Shown here: one piece after another, positions 2,889-10,578 of the stretch
Numbering within the stretch: position 1 is the first letter of the stretch
How the letters are laid out: each line of letters starts with the position of its first letter
Assembly (NCBI GenBank): GCA_043732485.1
Contig: JAYTHP010000172.1
Span: 1 to 10,983 of the forward strand
From: Oligoflexia bacterium
Lineage (GTDB): Bacteria > Bdellovibrionota > UBA1018
Length of the DNA stretch: 10,983 bases
Reading direction: 5' to 3'
The notes under the pieces: generated by a model
Seen by the model: only the letters and a program-made list of their open reading frames with translations
Told to the model about the DNA's origin: nothing
The model's database searches: none
Program-made: the position numbers and the translations under genes

Positions 2889-3770
2889 GCCTGTGGGGGT
2901 AGGTGAACTGGTGGGGGAGTCAAGGGGGATAGTGTGTGGGACGGTGTGCTCAAGGCACGCAGCAGTCTTTGTCCGCAAGGCTCTCGTTTTTTTCTTCTTC
3001 ACGGGTAGGGTTGTCAGAAAAACGCGCGCCCAAGGATCTCGGGGTGATCCGACGATCGACGGCTCCCTCCTCCCCACGCCAGAAAGACCCAAGCGTGAAA
3101 AAAGCGAGTCTTTCTAGGGAAAAAAATCCCCGGGGGGCCGGGCAACGGTGGAGCGTGGTGGGCAAGAAAAACAGTCCAAAGCGCATTCTTCCGCTTCGTG
3201 TTGATCGCTGACATCACGGTCTAGGTAGGTTTTCGTCTCTTCTTTGGAGTTTTTTTGTACAATGTTTTTGTGGAGTGTTTTTTGGGTTTTTTTGTCAGAA
3301 AAAATCCTGGTTTGACTTGATTCCTCTTTTTTGGCTGCAGCCGAAGCGCTGAGGCTTCACCCTCAAGCTTAAAGCAAAGAGTAGCAGGGTTATTCTCCTT
3401 ATGTTGTAGGTCTTTTTCCTGTTTGCCTTTAAATGAACGGCGCCTCTCACGCTCACCATTTGAGCTTATTGCTGAATCACTAGCGGATCGTTCGATTCCG
3501 AGATGCAAGGAACCGAACTGAACTTTCGCGTCCCGTCCGCAAAAAAGGCTTTGCCTGAGCACCCATTTACTGAAATCATAAGAGTGACGGCGGGGCGAGC
3601 GCTTCTGCAAAGACGTGCTTACTTCTTGCAGTGGCGCTTGGAGATGAGGCTAAAGAAAAACGAGGGTGGAGTGCAGCAGGTTATTCATAAGTGCTTGCCT
3701 TTAAAAGTAAAAAACTAAGTTTCGCTGAAGATTCTTATGAGCTTGATCTCTGATTCGCAGGCAAGCGGAA

Positions 3771-3823
3771 ATTATTTTTTAATATTTAATAAAAAAATTT
3801 ATTATTTTATACTTAAAATAAAA
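3771..3823 (+). promoter_or_regulatory. AT-rich island with putative sigma70 promoter and overlapping inverted repeat
   Basis: About 50 nt of almost pure A/T. TTTAAT (3785-3790), 17-nt spacer, TATACT (3808-3813). Perfect 8-bp inverted repeat TTATTTTA-TACT-TAAAATAA at 3802-3821. Confidence 0.5.
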
Positions 3824-4109
3824 GAGCTAAGAGCGAGCTAAAAAGATTTCGTAAAGTCGGTTGTGCTGAGGCCACTTTGGCAGCGGCGAGTGTCGTGGTG
3901 GGTCCTTGTGTGACGATGTATGGTTTTGTAACAAGACCTGATCCAACGTCTGAGGCGTCCATACACAAGGTCATGCCAGTTTTGCTTCAGGAGAGCGTTC
4001 CTGAGGGAGTGGTAGCAACGAGAGGGCTTGAGCGTAAAAAAAGTAGGCTGCTACTCGTTAGCTTTGGCTGCGAGAAAAAAATCTAAGAGTTCAACCATCT
4101 AGATGGGGA

Positions 4110-7028
4110 GTGCGACTGTTTATGAATTTGGGACATTGTGGTCGATCTTTTGTGGGACTTTCACGCTTGTGGGTTCGGATGACAAGCCTACTGCTTCGGT
4201 TTTTGGGTACGCTAAGTTTGCCGGTAGGGTCCCTGGTGGGGGTGATTATGATAGGCCTGATGGGCGGGCGGCAGGCGTTTGCCAGCCAGAATCATAGTTA
4301 TTTCTTTGCCAATGGTAATCGCATTTTGCTGTCGCAAGACGTTGAGAAGGATCGCTATCAAATTGAGTGGTTTGCAGCGGGTGAGGCGGGTGAGGCGGGT
4401 GAGGGTAAGGTTTTATTGGAGGGGAAGGGTTTTCAAGAGCTGAAGGCCAAGAGCTGGCCTACCCCTTACTTGCAGGTGCGTGATGGCAGTCGCAAGTGGA
4501 TTTCCCAAGACGGCGAAGTGTTTCAGTCTTGTGCCCAGGCAAAAAAGTTGCGCGAGGTGCATCAGCAGTGGTTGGTGTTATCGCCGTTGGGGGAAAAGTC
4601 TGGAGAACAGTGGCTCGTGGAAACGGTGTTTTTTCGCGGGCATTACCAGACCTTTCTCCAAGAGCACTCGAGTGGGGATTGCTATAGGATGTCCAGTCAC
4701 ATGATGGCTCGTGAAAACCGCAAAGAGCAGGAAAAGACCGCTTTTCAAGTCACGCTCTTGGAGCAAAACGGTCACGTCTGGGTCTTACAAAAGGGCACGC
4801 AGTTTGCTTTTGATCTGACCCATCAGCGCCCTTTGCGCTTGATTGAGCATCAGGGGGTGTTGTACTCGCTCGATTGGTCGCATCAGGCGGAGTTAGGGGG
4901 TGAGGTAGTGGTCATGCGGCTTGCGGATCAGCAAAAGGTGCGGCTTTTTTACCCAGTGCAGGAGAATCACTCTGAGAATCCGCTGGAGCTGGAATCTGAG
5001 TCGGAAGAGGAGTCGCCGCGGCCACCCCTGCGCAAGCGTAAGCGGGGTTTGATTGAGCAGCTTTTAGTCGGTTCGGAGGCAGAGGAAAGTGACTCCGAGT
5101 GGAGTGCTCAGCCGGCGATGGAAGTCGAGTCAGGTTTGCTGACGATCAGAAACAGTCCACGCAAGATTGATTTGGATCGTTTTGATGAAGAAGTGCGCAT
5201 GGGAGAGCAGTTATCGCGCAATTTAAGATCCCTGAATAACCGCGGAGATTCCTTGGATCCGATGGCTTATCTCAGGACCCATTTTCAGGAATTGGTATCT
5301 GCGGCCAGGCAGTCGCCTGAGCACTTCCCGGAGGATGCCTTAGAGACCGTGATCTTACCGATGAAGCGAGCCTTGCGGCATCGCCAAAGTGTGATTCTGC
5401 TGGGTCCTGCGGGCTCAGGCAAATCCAGTGCTATTCGAGCGTTAGCCAGAGAAATTGCCCGGGGGGCTTATAAGGATCTGCCACGCAGTTTGCAGATTTT
5501 TGAGCTCACTGCAGCCACCTTACAAGAGGAGTCCAAGTTTGTTGGGACGATTGAAGGCAGGATGAACCTGATCTTGAAGGCTGCACAGGAAAACGGCGTG
5601 ATCTATTTCATGGATGAATTTCATAACCTGGCAGGCGCAGGCACCCACTCTAACCGTGCGAACGATTTAACTCAAGACCTCAAGGTAGCGTTAGAGCGCA
5701 AGCAGATCGTGCTGGTGGGTGCTGATACCAAAGAGGAGTTTCGGGCGGCTTATGGCTGGGACGGGGCGTTTATGCAGCGCTTTCAGGAAGTGAAGATGGT
5801 GCCGCTTGCCGGTCAACCGCTGCTCAAGTTGCTGGCTGAGAAGTTTCAAAAGGATACCTCAGTCACCCTCTCGCCTGCCATCCTGGAGCAAGCGGTGCGG
5901 CTGTCGGAGCAGTATGATCTGGAAACTGCGCAGCCCCGGGCAGCAGTCAATTTACTGAAAGAAGCCCTTCGGCAGGTCGAAGAGCGCGGCGGGGTGCTTA
6001 GGCTGTCGTCAGACGAGTTGCAACGTGCGGCCTTGAGTCGTTATAGTTTGGATCCGCATCAGTTTGATTTAAGCTTTCAAAAGCAGCGACTCAAAAATCT
6101 GCAAGAGGATCTTAAAAAGGAAGTGGTGGGGCAAGAGCACGCGAAAAAAGCCTTGCTGCAACTCTGGGGACGGCAAGTGAGTCAGGCCGTCGATCCTGCG
6201 GCGATTAAGACCTTGCTGTTAGTCGGACCGCCTGGAGTGGGTAAGTCCATGCTCGCTGAGTTCTCAGCGAAACGGATGGGGTATGCCTCAACCCTGATTG
6301 CCATGAATGCCTTAGGTTCGTACTCAGGGGTGGAGCAGTTTAAAAAGGAGATTGTCCAGGCCCTAGTGAAAAACCGCTTGCAGGTCTTTATCTTGGATGA
6401 GATCGAAAAAGCTCCCTTGAGCGTACAAAACGTCATTTTACAGCTCCTTGAAAAGGGCACGCTGACTTTTGAAGAGCAGTTTTCAAGCAGACGCAGCAAG
6501 ATCCGGACGATCAATTGTCGCAACTCCTTTTTCATTTTTACCTCCAACGGTGCGCAGGGCTATTTGGAGGAAAGAAAAGACCAGCGCGACTTTGAAAAGT
6601 ATCCGCTGGATCAGTTTCGGTTGCGCAGGATCTTGCGTGAGCCTGATCATCATGGCCGGATGATCTCCACGGAGCTCTTGGCAAGGATCCAAGAAATCCT
6701 CCCTGTGATGCGTCCGTCGCGTGAGGAATACAAGCGAGCGGTGGAGTTTTATCTGACGCGTCTTTTAACGGAAGCAAGCCAGCGGCTGCGGATCACCGTC
6801 AGTCTCACCAACGCCCCGGAGTTCATTGAAGCCGCTATCGCAGGTGATCTTTCGGAGATGGGTTACCGCGAGGCCCAGCAAACCACGCGGCTGATTGAAA
6901 ACACCCTGGCGCAGGCCTATTTGGAGCAACTGCCTGAGCCAGGCTCACACCTCGCCATTCGCTGGAATCCTCAAGAGGCTGATCAGTTTGTGAAAAAAGT
7001 GCCGGAGTTTTTAGGGATGTACCAGTAG
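4110..7028 (+). CDS. Atypical Clp/Hsp100 class I (ClpA/ClpB-like) double AAA+ ATPase with signal-peptide-like N-terminus and unrecognised N-domain
   Basis: D1: Walker A GPAGSGKS (5403-5426), Walker B IYFMDE (5601-5618), LKVALERKQIVLVGADT and DGAFMQRFQ (ClpB LKPALARGEL..GATT and DAALERRFQ). D2: VVGQEHA, Walker A GPPGVGKS (6225-6248), Walker B VFILDEIEKA (from 6384), ILQLLEKGTLT, IFTSN, ELLARI. ATG 4122 with GGGGAG at 4105-4110 is a plausible alternative start. Confidence 0.9.
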   Translation: MRLFMNLGHCGRSFVGLSRLWVRMTSLLLRFLGTLSLPVGSLVGVIMIGLMGGRQAFASQNHSYFFANGNRILLSQDVEKDRYQIEWFAAGEAGEAGEGKVLLEGKGFQELKAKSWPTPYLQVRDGSRKWISQDGEVFQSCAQAKKLREVHQQWLVLSPLGEKSGEQWLVETVFFRGHYQTFLQEHSSGDCYRMSSHMMARENRKEQEKTAFQVTLLEQNGHVWVLQKGTQFAFDLTHQRPLRLIEHQGVLYSLDWSHQAELGGEVVVMRLADQQKVRLFYPVQENHSENPLELESESEEESPRPPLRKRKRGLIEQLLVGSEAEESDSEWSAQPAMEVESGLLTIRNSPRKIDLDRFDEEVRMGEQLSRNLRSLNNRGDSLDPMAYLRTHFQELVSAARQSPEHFPEDALETVILPMKRALRHRQSVILLGPAGSGKSSAIRALAREIARGAYKDLPRSLQIFELTAATLQEESKFVGTIEGRMNLILKAAQENGVIYFMDEFHNLAGAGTHSNRANDLTQDLKVALERKQIVLVGADTKEEFRAAYGWDGAFMQRFQEVKMVPLAGQPLLKLLAEKFQKDTSVTLSPAILEQAVRLSEQYDLETAQPRAAVNLLKEALRQVEERGGVLRLSSDELQRAALSRYSLDPHQFDLSFQKQRLKNLQEDLKKEVVGQEHAKKALLQLWGRQVSQAVDPAAIKTLLLVGPPGVGKSMLAEFSAKRMGYASTLIAMNALGSYSGVEQFKKEIVQALVKNRLQVFILDEIEKAPLSVQNVILQLLEKGTLTFEEQFSSRRSKIRTINCRNSFFIFTSNGAQGYLEERKDQRDFEKYPLDQFRLRRILREPDHHGRMISTELLARIQEILPVMRPSREEYKRAVEFYLTRLLTEASQRLRITVSLTNAPEFIEAAIAGDLSEMGYREAQQTTRLIENTLAQAYLEQLPEPGSHLAIRWNPQEADQFVKKVPEFLGMYQ
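4377..4403 (+). repeat. 9-bp tandem repeat (GCGGGTGAG)x3 encoding AGE x3
   Basis: Three perfect in-frame copies in the ATPase N-domain. Confidence 0.9.
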
Positions 7029-7058
7029 ACGGCGGGAGAGGGCGGGCGCAGCCAAAAG

Positions 7059-7076
7059 AGCAGCAGCAGCAGCAGC
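7059..7076 (+). repeat. (AGC)6 intergenic microsatellite
   Basis: AGCAGCAGCAGCAGCAGC about 30 nt after the ATPase stop codon. Confidence 0.85.
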
Positions 7077-7366
7077 GGGAGTGCGCAAGTGAGCGGCGGG
7101 AGTTTTGTCGGAGCAGGAATGCTTGTATGGTGGGCAACCGTTAAAAGTACCCAGTGTTTGAGGGTGACCACCGACACACCGCGCCGCTTAAAAGGTCGTT
7201 GAGGCCCCAGGGAAGCAGTGAGGGGGGCTCTTAAGCTTCTAATTCAGTTGCGTCCCGGCAGTCTTACCAGGGTGTCTTCTCTTAAAGCACGCATCCCCAA
7301 TGATCTGCAAAAAGTTGCGTTTCTCTGCGATGACCGCAATGCGACAACTATCCTGATACAGGGGGG

Positions 7367-7798
7367 GCACGGGCAAACCTTGAACTCGATCTGATGCTCG
7401 GTCACCTGCATCGCTATCCTTAGAAGGTCAAAAACCTGAACGATATGAGTCTTGTCAGACTTTACCGTCTTTAAGCTCGAGCCGCATGCACATTCAGAAA
7501 CACTATGCTGAAGGAGCTGGTCTGGCTTCGCCACTTTTTTTAGTTTAGTAACACGATGACCGGTCTATCCACCCGGCTTTTTTCCGGTCTTTTTGCGCTG
7601 ACTGCTAGGGATGACGGGTTGGTTTGCTAAGCCGTCACTTGAAGGGAGCTTCGAGCTATTGGTGCTGTTTCTCCCCTTTTTTCAAGAAGGCCACGAATCA
7701 TAACTTCAAGATTACGAACCTGTCCTCAAGCTTGCGAATATGCTCTTTCACTTCGTTCGGTAGATCCTCAAAGAGGTTCTCTTAAGCAAGGTAGGCAT
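7367..7798 (-). pseudogene. IS66-family transposase N-terminal remnant (frameshifted, internal stop, 3'-truncated)
   Basis: The minus frame reads NSTNSSKLPSSD (7669-7634)...SQRKKTGKKPGG*TGH...HSVSECACGSSL...QVFDLLRIAMQVTEHQIEFKVCPC. This matches the IS66 NSxNSSxPPSSD / KPGGQxGH motifs and zinc ribbon. TAG at 7567-7565 replaces the conserved Gln. Coiled-coil-like pieces upstream lie in shifted frames. No DDE core is seen. Confidence 0.88.
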
Positions 7799-8040
7799 TT
7801 CAACAGAGCTTATCAATGATGGCTAGCATCAATCAGATGAGAAAAACAAAAAAGGACGTTTCTGCGCTCAATCTAAATATTTATTTGCCCTCTTTCTAGC
7901 TGGATCAGTGGGATTTGGGCTGGTTCGAACAAATAACTTATGGGCGCCTCGTAAGCAGAAGATTCATGTCATGTTGACGCCATCCGTGTCTGTTCGTGAA
8001 AAATTAAACCCACTCTGCAGAAAATGCGGTGAACAGTCAC
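7367..8040 (-). mobile_element. Decayed IS66-family insertion sequence (left end plus partial transposase)
   Basis: Transposase remnant plus a candidate left inverted repeat GTGACTGTTCACCG (minus strand, 8040-8027) resembling GTAACTGTTCA-type ends. No matching right end found. Confidence 0.65.
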
Positions 8041-8103
8041 ATGAAAACTCAAAGAGACCAGGGAGTCCAAGTGCCGTCTTGAAGTCGGGCCCAACGTTAT
8101 AAT

Positions 8104-8475
8104 TTACTGCGTCGCAGAGGGGCTGGCAGGCGGCAGCGGCGTTGCGCTAGTAGACCCCTGATTCGCAGGCACCGGGCTCCCGGAAAGCGTTTCCGATGGC
8201 GCGCTGCTGGGTGTTGCAATCGGCGTGCCCTCAAAAACGCTCTTTCCTGCTTGCCCGGACAAGACGGTCAGGCCAATCGAGGTCAACATGAAAACAGCAG
8301 CCGAGCCTGAGGTCATGCGGGTTAAGAAATTAGCCCCGCCTGAGGTCCCAAAGATCGTTTGGCTGGATCCACCCAGCGTGGTGCTGATCTCGGCGCCTTT
8401 GCCGGATTGCAGTAACACCAAGAGGATGAGGAAAAAGCAGGTCACAATGTGAACGATTGTCAGTAGGGTTTGCAT
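8104..8475 (-). CDS. secG: Preprotein translocase subunit SecG
   Basis: TM1 ending LVLLQSGKGA, Gly-rich loop LGGSSQTIFGTSGGANFLTRMT, TM2, then a Pro/Ser/Thr-rich tail. This is the classic SecG signature. Confidence 0.96.
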   Translation of the reverse strand: MQTLLTIVHIVTCFFLILLVLLQSGKGAEISTTLGGSSQTIFGTSGGANFLTRMTSGSAAVFMLTSIGLTVLSGQAGKSVFEGTPIATPSSAPSETLSGSPVPANQGSTSATPLPPASPSATQ

Positions 8476-10578
8476 TTACTTACTTTCTTTAGCCTTCTGC
8501 TCTTGATATTTCCTGGTCATCTCTTCTTGCACGTTGCGAGGCACGGAGGAGTATTTTAAGAACTCCATCGTAAATTCCCCTTTTCCTTGAGTGGCTGATC
8601 GTAAGTCGGTGGAATAGCCAAACATTTCACTTAAGGGCACTTCGGCTTCAATGATCGCATACCCTTCATTGGTGCCGCTGTTGACAATCACTCCGCGTCT
8701 TTGATTGATCTGGCCCATGGCGCCCCCTTGGAATTCTTCAGGGACCTGAGTTTCAAGCTTCATGATCGGCTCTAAAACCACTGCGCCAGCCTTCGCGTAA
8801 GCTTCACGAAACCCCATCAGTGAGGCGGTTTTGAAAGCCAATTCCGAGGAGTCCACCGCATGGCTCGCGCCGTCGTTAATCGTCGCACGCACGCCCACAA
8901 TTGGGAAGCCAATCAGCCTGCCTTCTTTGATTGCCTCTTGGAAACCCTTGTCACACGCTGAGACGAACTCGCGTGGGATCGATCCCCCCACGATTTCATC
9001 GACAAACTCGTAACTGAGTACCGAGTCGCTGGGCAATGGCTCAAGAGAGCCCACCACTTTACCAAACTGACCGGAACCCCCGGTTTGCTTCTTGTGGGTG
9101 TAACTAAAGTCAGCCTTTTTCGTGATCGTTTCTCGGAAAGCCACCTGTGGCTTACCGACAATCACTTCACAGTTGTATTCTCGCTTGATGCGTTCACAAT
9201 AAATCTCCAAGTGCAATTCACCCATCCCACTAATGATGGTCTGCCCGGACTCCTCATCGCGGTGCACGCGAAAGGTCGGGTCTTCTTTGGTGAACTTATT
9301 AAGTGCTTTGGAAAAATGGGTCTGGCTGGCCTTATCTTTTGGCGTAATAGCCAGCGAGATCACCGCATTGGGGATGAACATCGAGGTCATCGTGTACTTA
9401 ATCTTACCATCGGTAAAGGTATCTCCTGAGGCACAATCCACCCCGAACATCGCCACAATGTCGCCTGCTTGGCAATCATCAATGTCGTTCATCTCATCGG
9501 CGTGCATCTGGGCGAGTCTGGGGACCTTGACTTTCTTGTCATTGGAGACGTTAAAGATCACGTCTCCCTTCTTCATGGAGCCCTGATAGATGCGCATGTA
9601 AGTGAGCTGTCCGTAACGCCCTTCATCAAGTTTGAAGGCCAAAGCCACGAACGGCAGGCTGGCGTCCGACTTTAAGACCACCTTTTCTTCAGCTTTGAGC
9701 TGATCGAGGGCCAGATTTTCCTTCTCAGCAGGGCTGGGCAGGTAATAGGTCACAGCGTCAAGCAAAAGTTGTACGCCCTTGTTTTTATAGGCGGAGCCCA
9801 TCATGACGGGAGTAAAATTGAGGGTCAAGGTTGCCGTGCGAATCGCGTTTCTTAGTTCCTCAACCGTGACGGCTTCCCCTTCTAGGTATTTGTTCCCCAC
9901 CACTTCGTCAAATTCGCCAACAGCCGAGATCAAATCTTCTCGGTATTTCTGAGCTTCGGCGACCAATTCGGCTGGCACTTCCTCTTCACGAATGTGCTCG
10001 CCGTTATCGCCGTCAAAGTAAAATGCCTTGAAGGTCACTAAATCGACCACGCCCTTGAACTGATCTTCGGCGCCAATCGGGTAAGTGATTAAGTGAGCGT
10101 TGTGACTGAGCTTTTCTCGTAACATTTTGACGCCGCGAAAAGGATTCGCTCCCGCGCGGTCCATCTTATTGATGAAGCAAATCCTGGGGACTTTATAACG
10201 CTTCATCTGACGATCAACCGTGATCGATTGCGATTGCACGCCTGCCACCGAGCACAAGACCAACACCGCGCCGTCTAAGACGCGCAAGGAGCGCTCGACT
10301 TCAATCGTGAAGTCGACGTGTCCTGGGGTATCAATCAAGTTGACGTTGTAATCTTTCCAGACGCAGTAGGTGGCGGCTGATTGGATGGTGATCCCTTTTT
10401 CACGCTCTAAATCCATGAAATCCATGGTCGCGCCGACCCCGGACTTCCCTTTGACTTCCTCAATACGATGGATTCTTTTGGTGTAAAAAAGTACTCTTTC
10501 GGAAAGGGTGGTTTTCCCGGAGTCAATGTGAGCTGAGATCCCAATGTTTCTAATTTTATCGGCGGCAAAACGAGTCAT
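8476..10578 (-). CDS. fusA: Elongation factor G (spdEFG1 / mitochondrial EF-G1-like subtype)
   Basis: [77 protein letters not shown]; 700 aa. Confidence 0.99.

Follow-up and report, generated by a model that had tools for sequence, protein, structure and literature searches.

A signal-peptide-like leader on a two-ring Clp-type ATPase from an Oligoflexia bacterium and on its relatives in the Bdellovibrio phylum

In the textbook view, the ATP-driven chaperones and unfoldases of bacteria stop at the inner membrane. The open reading frame (ORF) at positions 4110..7028 of contig JAYTHP010000172.1, from an Oligoflexia bacterium, raises the question of whether one of them goes farther. The window that we analyzed is this entire 10,983-bp contig (C172) of a genome (G000) that comprises 2.58 Mb in 250 contigs and is 89% complete. 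The ORF lies on the forward (+) strand, as do all of its features described below, and encodes 972 residues (protein P0001) from a GTG at 4110; the database gene call (P0002) starts at the ATG at 4122 and gives a product of 968 residues. Since the genome also encodes a canonical ClpA (contig C61) and a canonical ClpB (contig C107), the ORF at 4110-7028 represents an extra Clp-type gene. Our reading of its product, to which we give a probability of about 0.5, is a Sec-exported, ATP-dependent two-ring unfoldase of an undescribed clade, in which a signal peptide and a beta-rich domain stand in for the Clp N-domain. Export in the broader sense, with the leader either cleaved or kept as an anchor and the bulk of the protein outside, we consider probable.

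Searches against Pfam and NCBIfam place two AAA+ modules at residues ~409-945 of P0001, closest to those of ClpA, ClpB and ClpV (TssH). The first ring module, D1 (5334..5984), contains the Walker A motif GPAGSGKS (residues 432-439, 5403-5426), a K-F-V-G pore loop (5535-5546), the Walker B acids D502-E503 (motif at 5601-5618) and Arg557 (5778-5780). The second, D2 (6072..6944), contains the Walker A motif GPPGVGKS (residues 706-713, 6225-6248), the Walker B acids D763-E764 (motif at 6387-6401) and the conserved residues N813, R859 and R920. Ahead of both rings lies a conserved pre-ATPase segment, GLLTIRNSPRKIDLDRFDEEVR (5133..5198), for which the family consensus is GIL...R.IDL..FDAE.R. We aligned 44 sequences that are only 21-34% identical to P0001, and observed that G435, G437, K438, D502, G706, K712, N813 and R859 are invariant, and that E503, T540, R557, D763, E764, R920 and the D1 pore-loop residue G479 are conserved in at least 90%. 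Arginine-finger and sensor residues are kept in both rings (T540, R557, N813, R859 and R920), with the qualification that R920 is sensor 2 by a HMMER alignment and is put elsewhere by a three-sequence MAFFT alignment. Because the catalytic residues are invariant or at least 90% conserved despite this low identity, nucleotide hydrolysis appears to be under selection. The closest solved relatives in a sequence search of the Protein Data Bank (PDB) are ClpC1 (E 1e-33), ClpB, ClpC and ClpA, with E values from 1e-33 to 1e-28. Likewise, the full-length AlphaFold model, which has a predicted local distance difference test score (pLDDT) of 83.7 overall and above 90 over the rings, matches ClpC, ClpA and ClpB protomers with template modeling (TM) scores of 0.65-0.69 over ~600 columns. 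On its sequence, then, P0001 is a two-ring Clp/Hsp100-type AAA+ ATPase.

The likeness to ClpA, ClpC and ClpB thus extends to the two rings, the Walker A and B motifs, the arginine fingers, the sensors and the aromatic pore loop of D1. As in ClpA, the coiled-coil M-domain is missing as well; P0001 shows a gap opposite the M-domain of the genome's own ClpB in alignment A4. In contrast to all three, P0001 has no Pfam match to Clp_N (PF02861), which is present in all canonical Clp matches, and none to ClpB_D2-small, and its D2 lacks the canonical GYVG pore loop. The ClpP-docking [IL]G[FLM] loop of the last ring is also missing, since P0001 has a deletion where the genome's ClpA reads 'SLGMGADVG', a segment that we take to be the docking loop. 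What P0001 has instead is an export-type leader and a beta-rich N-domain. Its NCBIfam scores all fall far below the curated cut-offs, at 149 of 993 bits for ClpA, 143.8 of 1232 for ClpB and 128.5 of 885 for TssH.

The sequences most like P0001 form a family of their own. In word-index searches, P0003 (P0130 in its full-length form) and P0011 were the only clear relatives, and a further word-index search with alignment A2 added none. An exhaustive hmmsearch with a three-sequence profile listed 150 matches with E values from 1e-122 to 1e-58. A few of the lowest matches (for example P0254 and P0273-P0275) start in a Clp_N-like manner, so we estimate the family at ~140 cluster representatives; counts out of 150 given below refer to the profile matches listed, and counts out of 137 to full-length members. 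Canonical Clp proteins score ~100-125 bits against single family sequences. A quick, unrooted FastTree tree built on the ATPase part groups 31 of 32 family rows in a single clade (Shimodaira-Hasegawa-like support 100) that is distinct from 40 canonical Clp rows, with the remaining family row falling on the canonical side. Database records name the members 'AAA family ATPase', 'ClpA' or 'SpoVK/Ycf46/Vps4 family'. A full-text literature search, with most subscription journals outside its scope, found no description of a signal-peptide-bearing AAA+ or Hsp100 protein in Bdellovibrio, nor the phrase 'periplasmic/secreted/exported AAA+'. The family of two-ring unfolding ATPases with a secretion signal is thus undescribed, and so far it is found only in the Bdellovibrio phylum. 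The motor is of a known kind; what is new is an export signal on such a motor, in bacteria and across a clade.

The sole hydrophobic segment of P0001 is a Kyte-Doolittle peak (19-residue window) at residues 32-50, with none past residue 60. It forms part of a signal-peptide-like leader (4122..4283) that consists of an arginine-rich n-region (net charge +4), a 23-residue uncharged core (F31-G53, 4200-4268) and a c-region, RQAFA. The c-region ends in an A-X-A site, A56-F57-A58 (4275-4283), with the cut predicted before S59. The leader is low in pLDDT in the full-length model. Four residues past the predicted cleavage site begins the first strand of the mature protein, SYFFANGN (4296..4319), which fits a family motif, [YF]xFxNG, that in orthologues begins 4-6 residues past the site. 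We found this motif within the first 110 residues of 66 of the 150 family members versus 5 of 118 canonical Clp proteins. P0133, the best orthologue, aligns with residues 63-972 of P0001 (33% identity, E 7e-152), indicating that the homology takes in the N-domain along with the rest of the mature protein, and that the leader is a module of its own placed ahead of it. Textbook leaders open P0003 (P0130), as MKLITFLFVLTFSVAAFA with the predicted cut before QK, and P0011, as MRILLSILLLCQITIISTSAYT with the predicted cut before QDD. All 13 genomic orthologues whose N-termini were inspected have a leader immediately 5' of the [YF]xFxNG strand, the start of one of them (L091) being ambiguous.

These results bear on the simplest alternative, namely that P0001 is an ordinary cytoplasmic Clp protein whose start has been wrongly extended, so that the hydrophobic stretch is untranslated or accidental. 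The gene does have three candidate starts (GTG 4110, ATG 4122 and, possibly, ATG 4179), and the Shine-Dalgarno-like GGGGAG is 13-18 nt 5' of ATG 4122, which is rather far; ATG 4122 is the likelier start than GTG 4110. However, the next methionine past the leader is residue ~197, within the conserved N-domain, and every orthologue examined has an open frame and a leader before the conserved strand. The P0133 alignment also contradicts a misplaced start, and canonical ClpA and ClpB are already present in the genome. We therefore regard this alternative as very improbable. Judged by these comparisons, the leader is a family trait and not a start-codon artefact.

We also asked how the leader is laid out across the family. 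Our leader calls come from inspection and from crude rules of our own. Under the strict rule, the core must comprise 10 or more uncharged residues, have a mean hydropathy of at least 2.0 and start within the first 30 residues; a net positive n-region and a small-x-small site are required as well. By this rule, 79 of the 137 full-length family members are positive, versus none of 109 canonical Clp proteins. An uncharged run that begins within the first 45 residues is present in 134 of the 137, with a median length of 18 residues. Of these 134 members, 99 have a net positive charge ahead of the run, 23 a net charge of zero and 12 a negative one; over the 12 residues that follow the run, 65 members are net negative, 30 neutral and 39 positive. 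In 84 of the 134, the run is followed by D or E as the first charged residue, and positions -1 and -3 are most often occupied by alanine. Two established criteria for the layout of signal peptides are the positive-inside rule and the -3/-1 rule. Given this charge pattern and the small residues at -3 and -1, the leaders have the layout of an N-in, cleaved signal peptide and not that of an N-out anchor.

An N-in leader might still go uncleaved, in which case the core would stay in the inner membrane as a signal anchor and both the N-domain and the rings would sit in the cell's own periplasm. The P0001 core is longer than a typical signal-peptide core, and it could retain the protein in this way; its 23 residues compare with 18, the median in the family for core and c-region taken together. 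The arginine-rich n-region (+4) fits an N-in orientation, and the full-length model has helices at residues 14-34 and 40-49. Set against this, the A-F-A site follows a helix-breaking G-G-R-Q and lies 4 residues ahead of the conserved strand, as it does in orthologues with short cores, and the anchored form would face the same ATP problem as full export. We consider the uncleaved anchor unlikely.

The opposite orientation, N-out and C-in, would make the leader a tether and leave the N-domain and ATPase in the cytoplasm, as a membrane-bound unfoldase like FtsH or Msp1. This arrangement would do away with the ATP problem altogether. It is also in keeping with the C-terminal HExxH and weak Peptidase_M41 match (E 0.024) of the P0130/P0011 branch, which are reminiscent of FtsH, and with three other genes in the genome that combine a leader with an AAA module and may encode membrane proteins. 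FtsH itself resembles the family in having a hydrophobic N-terminal segment before an AAA+ motor, and a C-terminal HExxH in the case of the one branch; it differs in that its single ring is combined with a pair of transmembrane helices and an M41 peptidase, whereas P0001 combines two rings with one hydrophobic segment and is devoid of a peptidase domain. Against the reverse anchor, the N-side charge is positive in 99 of 134 leaders and the charge after the run is negative or zero in 95 of 134, which is the opposite of what the positive-inside rule predicts for N-out/C-in. In addition, the core of many members is not long enough to cross a membrane and has A-x-A and acidic residues behind it, and the M41 reading comes without any PDB sequence match. 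Thus, a cytoplasmic ATPase held by its leader is likewise an unlikely explanation.

Much of this agrees with an earlier note that had been made from the letters of this DNA alone. The note had described Walker A and B motifs in both AAA+ modules, a hydrophobic leader in place of the Clp N-domain and an A-X-A site at 4275-4283, and each of these was confirmed. It had named a start downstream of the hydrophobic stretch, an anchor that leaves the ATPase cytoplasmic and leaderless, cytoplasmic Clp homologues as ways in which its reading could be wrong; in our hands, the start does not fall downstream of the hydrophobic leader, N-out/C-in is disfavored by the flanking charges, and homologues, which it had proposed to check, carry leaders of their own. 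Because the ATPase residues are kept and the leader is conserved across the clade with a Sec layout, we share the note's preference for an exported, intact ATPase as the best reading of the sequence.

Between the leader and the rings lies the N-domain (4284..4952, residues 59-281, ~225 residues), which has no Pfam family and for which AlphaFold predicts strands throughout; the model of the N-region has a pLDDT of 72.9. The ~230 residues of unrecognized, beta-rich-looking sequence in the earlier note, with the acidic linker after them, are therefore borne out. The Foldseek search that the note had proposed was run against the PDB and returned propeller-like matches at TM ~0.2 only, so that the domain was left without an assigned fold. 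The top score in a features search of the ESM Atlas, 0.75, fell short of the lead threshold, and the highest Z obtained with VIA-align wide, 7.3 (PorZ, the DPP4 propeller and PliI), is within the stated noise of that tool. We regard these propeller-like matches as too weak for a fold to be assigned. Two cysteines of the N-domain, Cys141 (4530-4532) and Cys191 (4680-4682), are common to the closest relatives (7 of 36 and 7 of 13 filled rows, respectively).

The segment that follows is a linker with acidic and basic residues (4965..5105, residues 286-332) that is low in confidence or disordered in both models. It contains RKRKR (residues 308-312, 5031-5045), which had been read as a pointer toward work inside another cell by virtue of its likeness to a nuclear localization signal. 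The linker with RKRKR is an insertion missing from all 16 of the other aligned N-regions. Since the motif is private to P0001 and predicted to be disordered, we give it no weight.

At its other end, P0001 terminates in a tail with the motif G-M-Y-Q (7014..7025), in which the aromatic residue is penultimate, as in the hydrophobic-tyrosine-any (HbYX) motif. The role of that motif is known from proteasome activators. The tail is low in pLDDT and is presumably flexible for that reason. A C-terminus of the form [MYL][YF]x occurs in 9 of the 150 matches, all in the closest subfamily (P0002, P0133-P0136, P0138, P0144, P0145 and P0161), and the same expression also matches 4 family members with a different type of tail and 4 of 118 canonical Clp proteins. 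Two genomic orthologues, L088 and L089, terminate in YFN and YYN. The remaining family has a conserved cysteine a few residues before the end (32 of 35 filled rows in alignment A2), and a cysteine is present within the last 30 residues of 122 of 150 family members versus 33 of 118 canonical Clp proteins. The conservation of the tail suggests that it docks on a partner. P0001 resembles the HbYX activators PAN, Mpa and Cdc48 in carrying a hydrophobic-Tyr-any tripeptide on a flexible tail; it differs in that the motif is confined to the closest subfamily and that no proteasome or HslV gene (PF00227) was found in the 89%-complete genome, in which ClpP is present. On these results, the reading of the HbYX-like motif as a pointer to a host or prey cell finds no support.

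The family is restricted in its distribution. A search with P0001 at E <= 1e-40 gave matches in 29 of 401 genomes of the window's phylum, G000 included; of these matches, L084 and L085 are canonical ClpA, and L071, L075, L082 and L083 are candidate members as far as their N-termini are concerned. A profile of the N-region (A3) matched 23 of the same 401 genomes, again with G000 included. In samples of two other phyla (702 genomes in total), the profile matched none of 301 genomes from the phylum to which a Myxococcota-labelled metagenome-assembled genome belongs and none of 401 from the Macromonas phylum. By order, with G000 excluded, it matched 15 of 90 genomes in the window's own order versus 7 of 310 elsewhere in the phylum. 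A contig search for related loci returned mostly canonical Clp D2 sequences, and its best two loci (L005 and L006) have Clp_N-type N-termini. The record of the best orthologue, P0133, is named Bdellovibrionia bacterium. Restriction of the family to the sampled Bdellovibrionota is compatible with a link to predation, which it does not demonstrate.

If P0001 is exported and active, its work might proceed as follows. The unfolded precursor would pass through SecYEG and lose its leader by a cut after A-F-A, and the mature protein would hexamerize outside the cytoplasm. There, the intact D1 pore loop would grip polypeptides in an ATP-driven manner and unfold or pull them, with the beta-rich N-domain selecting the substrate or the site and the conserved C-terminal tail docking the ring on a partner. 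Given that the bacterial periplasm is held to be without ATP, and that ATP would be needed for this work, another cell's ATP is the most likely source. The restriction to Bdellovibrionota would favor a workplace at the predator-prey interface, in the bdelloplast or in the prey cytoplasm, and in this phylum a prey cell would be the simplest ATP source.

Several observations weigh against an exported, ATP-driven unfoldase. One is that the periplasm is held to lack ATP. Prey ATP would not be a lasting remedy: the prey proton-motive force is reported, in one account, to be dissipated very early (PMC12228718), and with this collapse the supply of ATP in the prey would be brief. In D2, the pore loop reads G-S-Y-S-G-V where GYVG is canonical, and is thus degenerate. 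As to the leader, the strict rule misses 58 of 137 full-length members, and a looser rule that is positive in 99 of 136 family members is also positive in 34 of 109 canonical Clp proteins. Family-wide, the number of cysteines is even in 17 members and odd in 32, with none in 88, which is not the even bias expected of disulfides; an argument from disulfides for an oxidizing location was discarded for this reason. The family is patchy, being present in ~6% of the genomes sampled, and the order in which it is commonest is that of the window itself. One member, P0170, comes from a record labelled Xanthomonadaceae bacterium, though its genome (G057) is placed in the window's own order, and the label is probably a taxonomic mislabel. 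Finally, in 12 loci (~±8 kb) there are no conserved neighbors save in two congeneric genomes, and no pore or peptidase partner appears among the neighbors, the Pfam matches to 30 of 46 flanking genes being to unrelated functions. The ATPase gene stands alone.

The first and third of these points would be accommodated if P0001 were exported as a periplasmic holdase or scaffold that turns over no nucleotide and keeps the AAA+ fold for its structure alone. A compartment without ATP and a degenerate D2 pore loop are both what such a protein would lead one to expect. However, the Walker A lysines, Walker B acids, arginine fingers and sensors are invariant or at least 90% conserved among sequences that are only 21-34% identical to P0001, and we consider an inactive ATPase quite improbable. 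An exported ATPase that hydrolyzes ATP thus continues to be our preferred reading.

There are precedents among eukaryotes for AAA+ proteins beyond the producer's cytoplasm. The Plasmodium protein HSP101 (ClpB2) is described as an exported Hsp100 that serves as the motor of PTEX, the translocon by which Plasmodium exports proteins, with its C-terminal domain docked on the membrane pore EXP2 (PMC7355975). HSP101 structures (6e10 and 6e11) are among the PDB sequence matches to P0001, with E values of ~1e-22. If exported, P0001 would, like HSP101, be an Hsp100 protein outside the producer's cytoplasm, in a compartment that faces another cell. HSP101 differs in that it is eukaryotic and keeps a Clp-type N-domain and a ClpB M-domain, and in that no pore partner was found among the neighbors of P0001. 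The likeness is, on this comparison, a functional analogy and not a close kinship. Torsins provide a second case. They have one ring and are missing key catalytic residues. They are described as AAA+ ATPases with a signal sequence that reside in a secretory compartment, the endoplasmic reticulum lumen and nuclear envelope (PMC7175109, PMC5425593). The D2 of the relative P0130 matches Pfam Torsin (PF06309) at the cut-off (27.0 bits), and this family is not among the 25 best Pfam families of P0001.

The comparison with HSP101 invites a more specific idea, which we offer as a rather unlikely one: P0001 could be a bacterial counterpart of the PTEX motor, that is, a Sec-exported Hsp100 hexamer with its C-terminal tail on a pore at the predator-prey interface, using ATP leaked from the prey and threading predator proteins in or prey proteins out. 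For Bdellovibrio bacteriovorus, insertion of PopA into the inner membrane of the prey has been reported (PMC12228718). If the PTEX-like idea were true, this would be the first ATP-driven protein machine known outside a bacterial cytoplasm. Short of that, the retention of every catalytic residue alongside a secretion signal in an Hsp100 clade, in a phylum whose members are known to attack other bacteria, contrasts with the textbook view, and if export is confirmed, there would have to be an extracytoplasmic source of ATP, most simply the victim cell. According to a 2025 review, the secreted enzymes of predators and their secretion routes are little understood, as is the way in which predators move or dismantle proteins across prey membranes (PMC12428579). 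If exported, the family would be a candidate motor for the latter task.

Some members of the family depart from the architecture of P0001. P0130 (residues ~820-1066) and P0011 (residues ~840-1103) have a C-terminal extension with HELxGHW...IPGxGYLGY, which is missing from P0001. The extension of P0011 has a weak match to Peptidase_M41 (E 0.024), and the extension of this branch is possibly a fused metallopeptidase. We did not retain an M41 assignment, for which there are an HExxH and the Pfam E value of 0.024 and no PDB sequence match. P0171 (1335 residues) has four Walker A motifs (positions 420, 699, 808 and 1086), and its ATPase part therefore appears to be duplicated. Elsewhere in the genome of the window, three further genes encode a leader-like N-terminus, an unassigned N-region of 260-570 residues and a single AAA module of the classical type (PF00004). 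Two of the genes lie side by side (C116:26306-28006 and C116:28367-30964, or L110:4307-6007 and 6368-8965), and the third is at C194:486-1994 (L111). Given further weakly hydrophobic stretches, these three may be ordinary membrane proteins.

In the window itself, the neighbors of the ATPase gene are tpiA, an orphan ORF of 554 residues, secG, fusA and orn, and the gene is flanked by 1.2 kb of non-coding DNA on its 5' side and 1.07 kb on its 3' side. Scans of the window for Rfam families and tRNAs gave no matches, and scans for promoters and terminators gave matches at the same level as in shuffled sequence. The triosephosphate isomerase gene (78-1079) encodes 333 residues, of which the Pfam match begins at residue 107, corresponding to profile position 33; because the match starts so late, ~70-80 residues, with Ser, Gly and Glu in abundance, appear to have been inserted or added near the N-terminus. 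The 554-residue ORF (1224-2888) is rich in Cys in its middle part and contains hydrophobic stretches. Neither Pfam nor NCBIfam has a family for it, and a search of 40 relatives gave no match; we take it for an orphan gene or for no gene at all.

The gene-free 1.2 kb on the 5' side (2889-4109) has a G+C content of 0.44-0.51, versus 0.55-0.62 upstream. It is unique within the genome and has no match to an Rfam family, a tRNA or, in any frame tested, Pfam. On the 3' side, the supposedly non-coding DNA contains a repeated element of ~680 bp (7367-8047), of which the genome has three near-full copies at 82-88% identity (on C171, C198 and C107) and shorter pieces on C68 and C250. A 37-nt piece at 7329-7367 recurs at at least 12 further loci in the genome. 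An open frame on the reverse strand (7244-7564) that overlaps the element has a sub-threshold match to zf-IS66 (E 5e-5, 24.1 bits with a cut-off of 27.3). Taken as a whole, 7329-8047 looks like a non-autonomous mobile element.

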